Shown here piece by piece: positions 10,327 to 55,538 of a stretch of 64,000 bases of DNA. Each line of letters begins with the position of its first letter. Within the stretch, counting starts at the first letter, position 1. Both the position numbers and the translations under genes were made by a program. The notes beneath the pieces were generated by a model, which saw nothing but the letters and a program-made list of their open reading frames with translations, made no database searches and had not been told where the DNA came from. Source of the stretch: Escherichia phage FFH2; the sequence record KJ190158; one strand, given 5' to 3'.

Positions 10327-10605
10327 ATGAGCTGTGAAAAATCTTTTTTCTTTATTATTTACGGTAAAGATAACTGCCCACATTGTGTAAGAGCAAAAGA
10401 ATTTGCAGTCAGTAAGGGTCTGCCTTTTGTATATAAGACACTTGGCGAGGGTTACACAAAAGAAGAGCTTATTGAGAAGTGCAGTCCAATCGTACCCAGA
10501 ACGTTGCCGCAGATCTTCTTAGAAAGTAATCTTGAAAGTGTCCATATAGGCGGTGCCGACGATTTCATCTCTTTTGTTAAAAATGGTTTTGGAGAGAAAA
10601 AGTGA
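10327..10605 (+). CDS. Glutaredoxin/NrdC-like redoxin
   Basis: YGKDNCPHCVRAKEF has a CPHC active site. TLPQIF...IGG is the glutaredoxin-fold cis-Pro and GG region. The gene sits between nrdB and nrdD. Confidence 0.8.
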   Translation: MSCEKSFFFIIYGKDNCPHCVRAKEFAVSKGLPFVYKTLGEGYTKEELIEKCSPIVPRTLPQIFLESNLESVHIGGADDFISFVKNGFGEKK

Positions 10606-11462
10606 AAGTTGTAAAACGGGACGGTAGAGAAGAGTTCTATAACGGAATTAAGGTGATCAAGGCGGCAGAGTCCGCCTTACTTGAGTCTGGACATACTGAA
10701 GAAGAAGCTTACCGGATCGCCTGCGCGGTTAATGAAGTTGTTGCTAACAATCTACCAACCGACCAGTGCACGATCTCTGTAAAAAATATCCATATCCTTG
10801 TTGAAGACGCTCTTATGGATATGGGTTTAAAATGTGCAGCCAGAGAATACATCCAGTATAGGCAGACAAGAGATAATAACAGAGAGGCAGGTGGAAAACT
10901 GCTTGCAGATATTAGTGGCTTCTTGGATCGCACTTGTGATGAATTTACAAAAGAAAACGCAAATAAGCCTACCAATCATGTACACACTCATCGTGACCTG
11001 CTTGCAGGCATCCTTAGCAAACACCTTGCATCAACACAGATCCTGACAGACCGTGTCTCAGAAGAGCACAATAAAGGCTTCATCCATGTGCATGATCTTG
11101 ACTACTTGATCAGTCCGTTAACAAACTGTTGTTTGGTAAATTATCCAGATATGTTGGAAAACGGATTCAACATTGGTAACGCCCATGTCAGTAAGCCGAA
11201 GTCAATAGGGGTTGCAACAACAATCCTTAGCCAAATCTCTAGTGCAGTAGCTAGTGCTCAATATGGAGGTCAGACTATGAGCCATATTGATCATTATCTG
11301 GCACAGTATGCTGAAGCGACCTATGAGAAGAACCTTAAATTTTGCCAGGAACATTGGTTGCCAGATGCTGAGACTGTTGCAATGCAAATGACAGATAAAG
11401 ACGTATTTGACAGCATGCAGACTTTGCTCTATCAAATCAATACGTTAACCTCTGTCAACGGT
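10602..11462 (+). CDS. nrdD: Anaerobic ribonucleoside-triphosphate reductase, exon 1
   Basis: ATP cone (KVVKRDGREEFYN) and colinearity with E. coli NrdD up to ...YQINTLTSVNG (E. coli ...YEVNTLHTANG). The frame hits a stop immediately after the proposed 5' splice site. Confidence 0.9.
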
Positions 11463-12260
11463 TAACAAACTGGCCGTTGTAAAACTCTCCTAACCTCATA
11501 AGAGGGGTCGGTAAATCCGGCTAACGGGGAACGCTAAGGCGAAAGCTATGCCAATCCCGTGACTAGTTCTTACAGGAGTTGGAACGGTTGTAACGACTAA
11601 CGAAAGGCAGAGATGCTTGACAAACATTTCTGAACCAAGTAGTGTAGAGGTTAGTTGAAATACTAACTTCGAAATGGAGAGGCTCTATGAAAAAGATCAT
11701 TCTTAATGGTGAAGAATCAAACTATGTGATTGATGAGGTTGGAAACGTATACGGAAAACGTGGAATGCTACACCCAATATTGTGGGGAGGTTATGGAAAA
11801 GGTAACAAGCATGTTAAACGCCGTTATATGTACTCTTTCAACCACAAAGGTAAAAAGATTCGAATCCAAACCTCAAGGATTGTTGCCTTGTATTGTTTGC
11901 CAGATGTCCCAGAAGACCCTGAAAACTGGGAAGTGAATCATAAAGACGGCAATACATTGAATGATCATCCGTCTAACCTAGAGTGGGTTTTGCCGGAAGA
12001 TAATAAGAGACATGCTTTCCGAACAGGGCTTTGCCCAGGCAAGTGCTATAGGAAAGTGCAGGCATACAAAGGGAAAACCTTGGTGGGTGAATATCCTTCA
12101 CTCTATGCCTGTGCAAAAGCCTTAAATTTGAACGTAGGTAACGTTCATAGGGCTATCGAAGGAAATGCCGAAGGTAAGCATCTCACAATAAAGGGTTATT
12201 ATCTTATTGAAGTAGAGTAAGAGATAGTCTGGCCCTGTGGAAACACAGGGGAGGAGACAG
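11463..12260 (+). mobile_element. Group I intron in nrdD carrying an HNH homing-endonuclease ORF
   Basis: The exon end CAACGGU can pair with the intron GCCGUUG (11475-11481) to form P1 with a U.G wobble at the splice site. The intron ends in G (12260). P7 candidates are GACUA (about 11565) and UAGUC (12225-12229). Joining 11462 to 12261 gives NTLTSVNG|QTPFITLSLGLDTS, matching E. coli NTLHTANGQTPFVTFGFGLGTS without a gap. Confidence 0.85.
11687..12220 (+). CDS. HNH homing endonuclease (intron-encoded)
   Basis: VNHKDGNTLNDHPSNLEWV is an HNH motif. A C-terminal NUMOD1-like HTH is present (YPSLYACAKALNLNVGNVHRAI). The ORF lies entirely inside the nrdD intron. Confidence 0.85.
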   Translation: MKKIILNGEESNYVIDEVGNVYGKRGMLHPILWGGYGKGNKHVKRRYMYSFNHKGKKIRIQTSRIVALYCLPDVPEDPENWEVNHKDGNTLNDHPSNLEWVLPEDNKRHAFRTGLCPGKCYRKVQAYKGKTLVGEYPSLYACAKALNLNVGNVHRAIEGNAEGKHLTIKGYYLIEVE

Positions 12261-13523
12261 CAGACTCCATTCATCACATTAAGTTTAGGACTGGATACCT
12301 CGGTCTTTGGTAGAATGATTACCAAAAATTACTTGAAAGTCCACAAAATGGGTCTTGGTGAAGAACGTATCACACCTGTGTTCCCTAAAGTGCTGTTCTT
12401 CCTAGAAGAGGGTGTCAACATGAACCCTGGAGATCCTAACTATGATTTGAAAAGATTGGCTCTGGAATGCTCTGCAGAGCGGATTTATCCTGACTTTGTT
12501 TCTGTTCCACTAAATCGTAAAGTGACAGGCTCGACAGATGGTAAAGTAACGAGCATGGGTTGCCGGAGTTTTCTTAGCAAATACAATGACTTGGAAACAG
12601 GCGAGGAGAAATACCTTGGCAGATTTAACTTAGGCGTTGTTAGCCTTAACCTGCCAATGATTGCGGCAAAAGCTAAAACGGAAGGTGTTGATTTCTTTGC
12701 AGTTCTTGACGAATACTTGGATCTTGCATACGAGGCTCACCTTGTAAGGGTTAACCGTCTAAAAGGAACAAAGGCAGGGCAGAACCCTATCATGTGGTGT
12801 GAAGGCGCTCTTGCTCGCCTGGATCCTGAAGAGAGTATTGATAAACTCTTCTATGACGGGTACGCTTCCATCAGTATTGGGTATATTGGTGTGTATGAAA
12901 CCTGTCAGATTTTGGGCAGAGAGGGTGACAAGGCTTTAGCTCTTGGAATCCTTCAGCACATGAAAGATGCTTGTGAGCGATATAAGAAGGAAAGTGGACT
13001 AGCATTTAGCTTGTACGGCACCCCTTCTGAGAGTTTATGCTATAAAGCTGCAACCTGTCTGGATCGTGAATATCCAGAAGTGTTGAAGCACGAGCATGAA
13101 TACCTCACCAACAGTTTCCATCAGCCAGTATGGATCAATAGTTCACCTTTTGATAAGTGGAAGTATGAAGAAGGTTTTGCTATGATCTCTTCTGGTGGCA
13201 ACATTGGATATATAGAGACACCTAACCTGAAAAACAACCTGGATGCTTTAGAGGCTCTTGTTGACTTCGGGTATAAACACATTATGTATTTTGGTATTAA
13301 CCAACCTGTGGATAAATGTCTCAAGTGTGGTTTCTCTGGTGAGTTCAGTGCAACAGCTAAAGGCTTTGTATGCCCAGAGTGTGGAAACCATGAAGAGGGA
13401 ACGATCAGTGTAATTCGACGTGTGTCCGGATACCTTTCCAGTCCTAACTCCCGTCCTTACAATAAAGGTAAGCAAGCGGAAGTTATCGAGCGAGTTAAGC
13501 ACTATGGAAGTTGTAGTTGCTGA
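12261..13523 (+). CDS. nrdD: Anaerobic ribonucleoside-triphosphate reductase, exon 2
   Basis: Colinear with the E. coli NrdD C-terminal half. It has a Zn ribbon (CLKCGFSGEF...CPECGN) and the glycyl-radical motif RRVSGYLS. Confidence 0.9.
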   Translation, partial: QTPFITLSLGLDTSVFGRMITKNYLKVHKMGLGEERITPVFPKVLFFLEEGVNMNPGDPNYDLKRLALECSAERIYPDFVSVPLNRKVTGSTDGKVTSMGCRSFLSKYNDLETGEEKYLGRFNLGVVSLNLPMIAAKAKTEGVDFFAVLDEYLDLAYEAHLVRVNRLKGTKAGQNPIMWCEGALARLDPEESIDKLFYDGYASISIGYIGVYETCQILGREGDKALALGILQHMKDACERYKKESGLAFSLYGTPSESLCYKAATCLDREYPEVLKHEHEYLTNSFHQPVWINSSPFDKWKYEEGFAMISSGGNIGYIETPNLKNNLDALEALVDFGYKHIMYFGINQPVDKCLKCGFSGEFSATAKGFVCPECGNHEEGTISVIRRVSGYLSSPNSRPYNKGKQAEVIERVKHYGSCSC

Positions 13524-13526
13524 TAC

Positions 13527-13556
13527 TTGACAAAAGCTACAAGGATGTGGCATATT
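13527..13556 (+). promoter_or_regulatory. sigma70-like promoter
   Basis: TTGACA-18 nt-CATATT immediately after the nrdD stop. Confidence 0.45.
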
Positions 13557-13586
13557 ATTGACACACAGTGAGCTAGGAGGTACAGT

Positions 13587-13703
13587 ATGTCTACAGGTAT
13601 TTATAAAATTTGCAAGTGTGGTTGTCGTTGCAATCTTCGTTGGTGCAAGGCACTGGACGATTTTATTTGGCATTGCCCTAAATGTGATGCGGAGTATCTA
13701 TGA
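13587..13703 (+). CDS. Cys-rich mini-protein (38 aa), zinc-ribbon-like
   Basis: MSTGIYKICKCGCRCNLRWCKALDDFIWHCPKCDAEYL. It has a strong SD (TAGGAGG) 7 nt upstream and is below the ORF-track cutoff. Its stop overlaps the nrdG start (ATGA). Confidence 0.5.
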   Translation: MSTGIYKICKCGCRCNLRWCKALDDFIWHCPKCDAEYL

Positions 13704-14173
13704 ACATTGCCGGATACACAGAAATATCTTACACCGAAGGACCAGGTATTAGAACTGCCTTATGGGTATCTGGGTGCCCACACGCTTGCCCTGGTTGCTT
13801 TAATCAGGCATTTTGGTCAAAAGATAAGGGGAGAGAGTTTACTGAAGAAGATTTGCAAAAAATCTTGTCAGATTTAGATAACCCGTCTGTGTGCGGTATC
13901 TCTCTGCTGGGTGGAGAACCATTAGCATACTATAATGAGCCAGATATTATTAGCCTGATGGAGAAAATTAAGGAAAAATTTGGTGACAAGAAAACTATTC
14001 TTGTATATACTGGGTTCACATTTGACCATATCTCTAGTGATGTTCTTAAACTGGCTGATATCATCATTGACGGTAAGTATGTAAAAGATTTACCAACCAA
14101 GAAACCGTTCCGAGGTAGCGATAACCAAAGAATGTTTAAAAAAGTAGCAGGCGGTTGGGTTCAGGTAGACTAG
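13700..14173 (+). CDS. nrdG: Anaerobic RNR activating enzyme (radical SAM)
   Basis: SGCPHACPGCFNQ is a CxxxCxxC cluster, and the protein is colinear with E. coli NrdG (GISLLGGEPL, IIIDGKYV, RGSDNQR). Confidence 0.9.
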   Translation: MNIAGYTEISYTEGPGIRTALWVSGCPHACPGCFNQAFWSKDKGREFTEEDLQKILSDLDNPSVCGISLLGGEPLAYYNEPDIISLMEKIKEKFGDKKTILVYTGFTFDHISSDVLKLADIIIDGKYVKDLPTKKPFRGSDNQRMFKKVAGGWVQVD

Positions 14174-14176
14174 TTG

Positions 14177-14206
14177 TTGACAAAGCTTTGTTTAGATAGG
14201 TATAAT
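14177..14206 (+). promoter_or_regulatory. sigma70-type promoter
   Basis: TTGACA-18 nt-TATAAT. Confidence 0.65.
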
Positions 14207-14237: not shown

Positions 14238-14351
14238 ATGGCTAAAAAAGCCTTGAAGAAGGCGTACAAAAAAGAGATTGCGCTTGAGCTTAAGAAAAAA
14301 CACAAGCGTGAAAAGAAATATCATGAGGATGAAGAGGGGGTGCAACAGTGA
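14238..14351 (+). CDS. small highly basic protein (37 aa)
   Basis: MAKKALKKAYKKEIALELKKKHKREKKYHEDEEGVQQ with an AGAGGGGG SD. Below the ORF-track cutoff. Overlaps the next start. Confidence 0.4.
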   Translation: MAKKALKKAYKKEIALELKKKHKREKKYHEDEEGVQQ

Positions 14352-14698
14352 CACAAGAACGTATCGATTTGGCTAATAAGTTTGTAGATCTCATTTTGCC
14401 ACGGTTAGTTACTCAACATGCAGATGCTATTTCTACTAATCTTGATGGCTTACGTCTAATGCTGAATCGCACAGATGACCCTCGTATTCGGGCTGATTTA
14501 GAAGCCTCTGCCAACAAACTGGAAAAGTTCTTGCAAGTGGACACGCAAGAAGCCTTGCACAAGATCATGGTGGAAGGTTTCTCTAAAGAATTTACCGTTA
14601 AAGAGCTTAAGGAGCTGATCCACCAAGAAGAGATGAATATCCGAGTTCAGGCTGTTGCAAGCAGCATGGAAGCGGCTATTGAAAAACTGTTGCAGTAA
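14348..14698 (+). CDS. hypothetical protein
   Basis: 116-aa ORF with a GTG start preceded by the same GAAGAGGGGGTGC box as the upstream mini-ORF. Confidence 0.55.
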   Translation: MTQERIDLANKFVDLILPRLVTQHADAISTNLDGLRLMLNRTDDPRIRADLEASANKLEKFLQVDTQEALHKIMVEGFSKEFTVKELKELIHQEEMNIRVQAVASSMEAAIEKLLQ

Positions 14699-54807: not shown

Positions 54808-55538
54808 ACTGTCTCCTCCTGTGTCTTCTCAGCATTCTTTCTTGCAGCTATTGCATCGTCCCTGTTCTTGAAATACCCAAGGCATTTCCTTTTACCATCT
54901 ACATGAATTCTGGCTACCCATCTTTCATGGGTTTTATCCCAATTCACCCCTGAGCAACCGCTGGTGTTATTATACTGCACGGCTCTTCCACTCTTGTGCG
55001 AAAAACCATTATCTTCGAAGAACTTTCTTGCCCACTCTGCCTCTTCAAAAGTTCTGTACTGGCCTAGCCAGACCCTTTCACCTACAGAGTCTGTGCCTTG
55101 AGCTACCCATGCCCCTCTTTCTTCAGAATAGTGCACCCCGACCCTGCCAGATTTGTTGTTGCTACGAGGTATCTTGCAACTTTTCTTTTTGTTATCTGTA
55201 GGTTCGAGTAGTTGCAAATTATGAATACTGTTGTCAGCCACACCACCTGTTTCCCTTATCTCCTTGATGTGGTCAACCTCATACCCTTCCGGTACAGGAC
55301 CGTTAAACATTTCCCAGATTATAACGTGGGCACCTTTAGTGCAATGCTTTCCTAGACTAACCACAGGCCTGCCATCAGCATCTTGCCCCTTGTCAGCTCT
55401 GGAGCCTGCTGAAGTTTTAACATATCCTACACCGCTGCCTGCCAGAATGTCTATCTTCCAAAAAAGATTTTGACCGTCATACTCCAATATTTCTGACCAC
55501 AAGTGATTAGCTACACAGTGATCTCTGAACTCGTTCAT
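54804..55538 (-). CDS. free-standing HNH endonuclease with two AP2 DNA-binding domains
   Basis: EVDHIKEI...NSIHNLQLLEPTDNKKKS is an HNH motif. Two AP2-like repeats follow (SGRVGVHYSEERGAWVAQ...LGQYRTFEEAEWARK and SGCSGVNWDKTHERWVARI...LGYFKNRDDAIAARK). Confidence 0.8.
   Translation of the reverse strand: MNEFRDHCVANHLWSEILEYDGQNLFWKIDILAGSGVGYVKTSAGSRADKGQDADGRPVVSLGKHCTKGAHVIIWEMFNGPVPEGYEVDHIKEIRETGGVADNSIHNLQLLEPTDNKKKSCKIPRSNNKSGRVGVHYSEERGAWVAQGTDSVGERVWLGQYRTFEEAEWARKFFEDNGFSHKSGRAVQYNNTSGCSGVNWDKTHERWVARIHVDGKRKCLGYFKNRDDAIAARKNAEKTQEETV

Follow-up and report, generated by a model that had tools for sequence, protein, structure and literature searches.

A conserved seven-cysteine microprotein encoded between nrdD and nrdG of rV5-like coliphages

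The 38-residue cysteine-rich ORF located between nrdD and nrdG in the window (the whole stretch of 64,000 nucleotides analysed here) is a genuine gene under strong purifying selection. The gene, hereafter the mini-ORF, occurs in a single phage clade and, through one horizontal transfer, outside it; it is a portable addition specific to this lineage and does not belong to the core of the reductase. The window originates from a coliphage of the rV5 type, genus Vequintavirus, and positions 13200–14200 are 96–98% identical to many such genomes. About 18 records labelled as 'Campylobacter phage' (MG0656xx, with C. jejuni as host) are also 96–97% identical to this region, and their naming or host looks doubtful. 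The ATG ORF translates exactly to MSTGIYKICKCGCRCNLRWCKALDDFIWHCPKCDAEYL. Cysteines are found at positions 9, 11, 13, 15, 20, 30 and 33, seven in total, rather than the eight counted in the initial annotation, whose own pattern also sums to seven. The two neighbours had been named there as nrdD and its activase gene nrdG, and Pfam domains identify both of them as such. The features of the region are collected in Table 1. Only one other short ATG-ORF in the window has a higher cysteine fraction, namely a 30-aa ORF at 55109 on the plus strand (MPLFLQNSAPRPCQICCCYEVSCNFSFCYL, 6 cysteines in 30 residues), which may be an out-of-frame artefact.

Table 1. Coordinates of the features at the nrdD–nrdG junction of the window.
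Feature	Position	Strand	Basis
nrdD, 3′ part (glycyl-radical domain, Zn ribbon), tail YGSCSC	12237..13523	+	NRDD, Gly_radical; C-terminal tail comparison
Sigma-70-like promoter consensus match, putative	13527..13556	+	TTGACA, 18 nt, CATATT, TG before the second hexamer; 10/12
Shine-Dalgarno sequence of the mini-ORF, AGGAGG	13575..13580	+	6 nt 5′ of the ATG
Mini-ORF, 38-aa, 7-Cys zinc-ribbon-like microprotein (PHROG 20137)	13587..13703	+	ATG start, translation, frame-specific pN/pS
Shine-Dalgarno sequence of nrdG, GGAG, inside mini-ORF codons Ala35-Glu36	13691..13694	+	5 nt before the nrdG ATG
ATGA overlap, mini-ORF stop TGA / nrdG start ATG	13700..13703	+	sequence
nrdG, class III RNR activase (radical SAM)	13700..14173	+	Fer4_12 E = 9e-43, Radical_SAM, phrog_626

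For the selection test, homologous sequence was taken from 17 loci, belonging to Vequintavirus isolates, to metagenomic phages of 130–140 kb that form a sister clade, and to one podophage; these loci yielded 14 distinct nucleotide sequences. In the Cys-rich frame, 11, 3 and 24 variable columns fall at codon positions 1, 2 and 3, respectively (chi-square p = 1.4e-4). The summed pN/pS of this frame over the 14 distinct sequences is 0.08, compared with 1.52 for the +1 frame and 1.23 for the +2 frame, and the view that this is a real coding ORF is thus borne out by its relatives. The pS values among lineages (0.59–0.92) are near saturation in the mini-ORF, yet all seven cysteines are invariant. 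The residues N16-L17-R18-W19, L23-D24-D25, I27-W28, P31 and E36-Y37 are invariant as well. His29 is replaced by tyrosine in several variants, and hence is not an obligatory ligand. The constraint extends over the full length of the mini-ORF, with pN/pS values of 0.09–0.20 being equal to those of the neighbouring nrdD (0.05–0.18).

The mini-ORF is preceded by the sole AGGAGG found within 10–16 kb of the window, at a distance of 6 nt from the ATG, in agreement with the earlier statement that it has the strongest Shine-Dalgarno sequence in the region. Every rV5-like lineage keeps AGGAGG or GGAG 6–8 nt before the start of the mini-ORF, regardless of which gene lies upstream. As for the promoter-like sequence that had also been assigned to the mini-ORF, a consensus match does lie at 13527–13556, but the region contains no excess of such sites (17 versus 12.5 ± 3.9 expected), and the site is best described as a putative consensus match only. 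It is seen only in relatives with nrdD directly upstream. A PhagePromoter prediction is present at the equivalent position in the Gotham record, and no promoter is annotated by the rV5 record and its authors at the equivalent site. A weak hairpin overlaps the promoter-like site, and its stem shows compensatory changes in locus L007; it was rejected as an RNA element, since its folding in the window is no better than that of shuffled sequence (z = -0.22). On the other side of nrdG, a perfect sigma-70 consensus (TTGACA, 18 nt, TATAAT, 12/12) is located at 14177–14206 just past the gene, where rV5 annotates the promoter P118. It is followed by a Lys-rich ORF of 37 aa (14238–14351), whose stop overlaps the next gene (14348–14698, 116 aa, phrog_7650), both being hypothetical in the annotation of relatives.

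As an ORF, the mini-ORF is not new; it is already catalogued and uncharacterised. The profile of PHROG 20137 matches the mini-protein at 38 of 38 positions with an E-value of 1.8e-31, and the window's mini-ORF is a member of this family with no difference from it. The exact sequence occurs in GenBank, RefSeq and UniRef under many accessions as hypothetical, for example YP_008530353.1 (phage JES2013) and AGM12497.1 (FFH2), with the UniRef name 'Uncharacterized protein, Vequintavirus', and its cluster 1 contains 46 members. The initial annotation expected such an ORF to be missed by standard cutoffs. This holds for those records that skip it (Gotham, Murica and FV3) or annotate a wrong frame, but not for the many GenBank records, RefSeq, UniRef and PHROGs in which it is listed. 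In the rV5 reference record, it is the non-conserved +1 frame that is annotated, as gp109 (75 aa; locus L006 2541–2768). In some records the mini-protein is named 'ribonucleotide reductase' or 'putative anaerobic ribonucleoside-triphosphate reductase'. Searches of Pfam and NCBIfam detected no RNR domain in it, neither of NrdD (NRDD/Gly_radical) nor of NrdG (radical SAM), and therefore these names reflect gene position alone. One metagenome-assembled (MAG) record labels it as an HTH regulator. Literature searches turned up no expression data for the mini-ORF, and no paper on the mini-protein or on class III RNR and small proteins associated with it.

An AlphaFold2 model built on an eight-sequence family alignment presents three strands (residues 16–20, 25–30 and 35–37) with medium confidence (pLDDT 68). 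Comparison of the model with the PDB using Foldseek returned almost only zinc ribbons, with Rpb9 ribbons, ZifS and the N-terminal ribbon of NUDIX as the top matches (TMq 0.68–0.72, rmsd ~1.2 Å over ~33 residues, probability at most 0.98). The E-values of these matches are at least 0.39, which is to be expected with a query of 38 residues. Weak sequence matches go to zinc ribbons only, i.e. eL43 ('IWHCPKCG'), a CPxCG μ-protein, Zn_ribbon_NUD, HVO_0758, PolD and PriA; the E-value in the PDB profile search is 0.14, and that of Zn_ribbon_NUD is 0.0029 for one member, under the Pfam threshold. The CPxC knuckle formed by Cys30 and Cys33 is invariant. The first knuckle is CxxCG in the relatives of 41–54 aa; the form in the window is one residue shorter there and has CxC, not the canonical CxxC. 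Given the seven invariant cysteines, the predicted three-stranded sheet and the fold and profile matches to zinc ribbons, the mini-protein probably binds metal, as had been suggested before, and according to the model it probably folds as a zinc ribbon.

The likeness to known zinc ribbons (Rpb9/TFIIS-type ribbons, Thermus ZifS 8yoz, NUDIX 3cng, the haloarchaeal CPxCG μ-proteins 8q5b/HVO_0758, and eL43) lies in the predicted three-stranded sheet and the CPxC knuckle. Different from these, the mini-protein has seven invariant cysteines instead of four, and its first knuckle in the window is CxC. No match to these ribbons is significant, and no common ancestry with any named family is detectable. 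A duplication of NrdD's own zinc ribbon was rejected as the origin of the mini-protein, with an hhalign probability of 8% and a likeness limited to the CPxC knuckle.

The family was searched for by an exhaustive HMMER scan over 1.84 billion cluster representatives and by a word-indexed search from the 41-aa relative P0002. Only three true relatives were obtained in the exhaustive scan: the 41-aa form, a 53–54-aa form with a Lys/Glu-rich N-terminal extension, and a singleton fusion. Four long repetitive proteins from the same scan (P0001, P0004, P0005 and P0007) were discarded as compositional noise. The singleton (P0006, from a 1473-bp ENA contig) keeps residues 1–20 of the mini-protein, up to and including CNLRWC, and continues in frame into the C-terminal portion of the 78-aa ORF found after the mini-ORF in genomes of the rV5 type. 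Either a natural deletion, with loss of the second knuckle, or an error of assembly would account for it.

The mini-ORF is present in ~120 Vequintavirus phage records, in line with the 117 records that have an NrdD at least 90% identical to that of the window, and is essentially universal in this genus. Among the metagenomic phages of the sister clade (NrdD 82–85% identical), the mini-ORF is likewise always located between nrdD and nrdG. Co-occurrence with nrdD and nrdG across taxa, as for a component of the reductase, is not what is seen: 2,427 phage records carry NrdD and 2,235 carry NrdG, compared with ~120 for the mini-ORF, and among the ~2,300 further records of phages that carry either gene no match to it was obtained. 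The nearest subfamily (phi92, tuntematon and REC; NrdD ~70% identical) has a direct overlap of nrdD with nrdG and no ORF in between. Sampled T4-like, FelixO1-like, T5-like and jumbo phages (JP4 and CBB among those lacking the mini-ORF) and Stephanstirmvirinae have no comparable Cys-rich ORF between the two genes. Degenerate-pattern scans of viral, metagenome and genome collections revealed no further context, with two hits (L029 and L032) being chance DNA matches. The one non-RNR context found across phage, viral, metagenome and genome collections is ACG-C91, an SP6-like podophage (Vectrevirus, 43.7 kb), which carries an intact copy, MSVFKICKCGCRCNLRWCKALDDVIWYCPKCNTEYL, with all seven cysteines. 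This copy (locus L005 3003–3112) is unannotated; it sits between a DUF3310 gene and the gene for an ATP-dependent DNA ligase, and its stop overlaps the ligase ATG as ATGA. No RNR genes are annotated in the ACG-C91 record.

Within the window, the stop of the mini-ORF overlaps the start of nrdG as ATGA, just as initially described. The same overlap is found in loci L001, L008, L009, L013 and L016–L019, and a GTGA is found in L012. The GCG/ACG-GAG that contains the embedded GGAG of nrdG is retained in 13 of the 14 lineages although that G is at a synonymous position, and the Murica record marks this GGAG as the RBS of nrdG. The putative translational coupling to nrdG claimed for the mini-ORF is thus common. 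It is not universal, however, because in rV5, WalterGehring and L007 the mini-ORF ends with TAA and one or two small ORFs (34 aa; 78–81 aa where present) precede nrdG, leaving the mini-ORF uncoupled from it. A frameshift fusion of the mini-ORF with NrdG was rejected, since there is neither a slippery site nor a fused homolog in the exhaustive search, and rV5-type genomes lack the overlap.

Much rearrangement is seen in the interval between nrdD and nrdG, where the mini-ORF forms a separate unit whose edges coincide with BLASTN breakpoints. The blocks shared with the query differ by genome, and comprise the Shine-Dalgarno sequence and the ORF only (query positions 96–228), the end of nrdD together with the ORF, or the ORF together with nrdG. 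The mini-ORF has been kept despite homing-endonuclease inserts upstream, small-ORF inserts downstream, and the replacement of nrdG alleles. The gap from nrdD to the Shine-Dalgarno sequence (5′ of 13575) is an insertion hot spot. GIY-YIG/T5orf172 endonucleases lie just upstream of the Shine-Dalgarno sequence in WalterGehring, WM, SophiaRose and L012; the inserts span 1460–2452 in L002, 528–1460 in L018, 255–1415 in L019 and 45–1259 in L012, and the endonucleases are free-standing, with DUF723/DUF4379 zinc fingers. The nrdD gene is itself split in the window (10602–11465 and ~12237–13523) by an insert at 11466–12236 carrying an HNH homing endonuclease ORF (11687–12220). An Rfam group I intron match at 11963–12250 ends at the junction with exon 2, and is sub-threshold (27.7 bits versus a gathering score of 50; E = 4.6e-4). 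In JES2013 and rV5, nrdD runs without interruption over 2124 nt, and the WalterGehring record has a joined CDS.

Through a comparison of the window with rV5, the pS value was found to be 0.19 for the last 300 codons of nrdD (pN 0.008), 0.24 for the mini-ORF (pN 0.021) and 0.73 for nrdG (pN 0.356). Therefore, the mini-ORF shares its history with nrdD, and nrdG has been replaced. NrdG is ~50% divergent between lineages in which NrdD is 82–99% identical and the core of the mini-protein is 82–91% identical, and the 38-aa and 41-aa forms of the mini-protein are each found with both NrdG alleles. This pattern argues against a co-evolving partnership specific to NrdG. Concerning nrdG itself, its alleles are only ~50% identical (13700–14173 of the window versus 3107–3580 of L006, as well as L008, L009 and L013), which implies that the activase gene has been repeatedly replaced while the reductase gene stays.

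The C-terminus of the window's NrdD (13506–13523) reads ...KHYGSCSC, while NrdD usually ends one residue after ...KH. Cys-bearing tails are found in many lineages with the mini-ORF, in the forms of YGSCSC or YGSCGC, VGNVD(Y/C)CPLSK and TNNGDCCSIY. Such tails are lacking from all eight lineages without the mini-ORF that were sampled, a set which is small and confounded by phylogeny. In the sister clade, L008, L009 and L013 have the mini-ORF together with an NrdD that carries no Cys tail.

What, then, does the mini-protein act on? We tentatively propose the class III reductase, on the side of NrdD rather than NrdG, with the mini-protein serving as a small binding module stabilised by metal. The metal would be held by the candidate ligands Cys9 and Cys11 (CxxC in the longer relatives) and by the CPxC knuckle of Cys30 and Cys33, leaving the invariant cysteines 13, 15 and 20 free for a second or shared metal site. 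The mini-ORF would be translated from its own strong Shine-Dalgarno sequence on the nrdD–nrdG message. Ribosomes ending the mini-ORF would stop at the start codon of nrdG, just past the embedded GGAG, and could re-initiate there. Since the stop falls on the nrdG start after this GGAG, translation of the mini-ORF probably also sets NrdG output in this phage. A link to the reductase is suggested by the match between the ~120 mini-ORF records and the NrdD set, the constant synteny, the history shared with nrdD and the clade-limited Cys tails, all being features read from genomes; the synteny inside one genus and its sister clade may reflect plain vertical inheritance. Against such a link, the mini-ORF is missing from the other sampled nrdDG loci, and an intact copy exists in ACG-C91, which has no annotated RNR. 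Taken together, the evidence neither demonstrates nor excludes a role in the class III reductase.

Alternatively, and with about the same likelihood, the mini-protein may be a portable zinc-ribbon microprotein unrelated to the reductase, which serves, for instance, in counter-defence or in taking over the host by binding a host protein or a nucleic acid, and whose gene merely resides in the nrdD–nrdG spot as a hot spot for inserted genes. The homology blocks that break exactly at the ORF edges, with several genomes matching only the Shine-Dalgarno sequence and the ORF, are in favour of this explanation, and so are the GIY-YIG/T5orf172 endonucleases and other small ORFs that occupy the same spot in relatives, the absence of the mini-ORF from all other sampled phage nrdDG loci, and its lack of co-variation with NrdG. 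The intact copy in ACG-C91, a phage without annotated RNR genes in which the same ATGA overlap is formed with another gene, points in the same direction. However, E. coli, the host of ACG-C91, encodes its own NrdDG, so that a class III reductase could still be the target of the copy. Moreover, ACG-C91 provides only one non-RNR context in all the phage, viral, metagenome and genome collections, the mini-ORF has never been lost or moved in ~120 genomes despite heavy local rearrangement, and the Cys-bearing NrdD tails are limited to the same clade.

The initial annotation had placed the mini-protein on the side of the activase, as an accessory partner for NrdG activation, a role read from the position of the gene. 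In its most explicit form, the mini-protein would be a mini-rubredoxin or iron-sulfur carrier donating an electron to NrdG for the cleavage of S-adenosylmethionine, by which the glycyl radical of NrdD is generated. Such a carrier would suit the seven invariant cysteines and the position immediately 5′ of nrdG, overlapping it in most lineages. There is also precedent in class I RNR operons, where the YfaE ferredoxin accompanies nrdAB, and the NrdI flavodoxin and NrdH redoxin accompany nrdEF. With these the mini-protein shares its small size, a possible metal-binding or redox-active nature, and a place in an RNR operon, where its expression goes together with that of the enzyme. Unlike them, it shows no relation to any of the three in sequence or fold; they serve class I enzymes and are widespread, whereas the mini-ORF is confined to one phage clade and occurs also in ACG-C91 without annotated RNR. 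The layout CxxCG ... W-x-CPxC of the longer relatives does recall the knuckle architecture of rubredoxin, but the knuckles are spaced by ~17 residues rather than ~29, and three extra invariant cysteines are present. A rubredoxin origin was rejected: hhalign against Clostridium pasteurianum rubredoxin gives a probability of 22% over 8 residues, and Pfam searches at E-values up to 10 returned no Rubredoxin or ferredoxin match for the mini-protein. A function in NrdG activation also fits poorly with the uncoupling of the mini-ORF from nrdG in the rV5-type arrangement, with the exchange of NrdG alleles of ~50% identity around an unchanged mini-ORF, with its absence from the nearest subfamily and from more than 2,000 other phage nrdDG loci (~120 mini-ORF records versus ~2,430 for NrdD and ~2,240 for NrdG), and with its presence in ACG-C91, where no nrdG is annotated. 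We therefore regard an electron carrier as unlikely.

A more specific version of the NrdD-side proposal would make the mini-protein a phage-specific third subunit of the class III RNR, in which cysteines 13, 15 and 20 share a metal site with the Cys tail of NrdD. The tail (...RVKH-YGSCSC and its variants) comes just after the glycyl-radical loop, and the subunit would protect, position or gate the radical domain. We know of no accessory subunit for class III RNR, and consider this version very unlikely to be correct.

The two remaining readings, in which the peptide has no function or is not the gene at all, are essentially excluded by the selection pattern. If the mini-ORF were a leader whose translation only delivers ribosomes to the overlapping nrdG start, as the ATGA overlap and the conserved embedded GGAG might indicate, its amino-acid sequence would not be expected under such strong purifying selection, with every cysteine invariant while synonymous sites are saturated; in addition, rV5-type genomes, in which the ORF ends with TAA and does not overlap nrdG, conserve the peptide just as well. 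Nor is it a chance frame, or a shadow of the overlapping +1 frame (13558..13752), even though rV5 RefSeq annotates the latter as a 75-aa hypothetical protein and several records annotate nothing at the position of the mini-ORF, for besides their high pN/pS the +1 frame has stop codons in ACG-C91, L007, L009 and L013–L015 and the +2 frame has stops everywhere, and both were rejected as coding.

Several corrections to existing annotation follow from this analysis, namely the baseless name of 'ribonucleotide reductase', the wrong frame in the rV5 reference and the unannotated copy in ACG-C91. An action of the mini-protein on NrdD or NrdG, if real, would give the anaerobic ribonucleotide reductase its first described accessory protein, and would offer a very small handle on the regulation of a glycyl-radical enzyme; were the mini-protein indeed a third subunit, class III RNR would gain its first known accessory subunit, a counterpart of YfaE and NrdI in class I. 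If it has no action on the reductase, it would represent a clean case of a very small phage gene that is strongly selected and moves as a cassette between unrelated phages.
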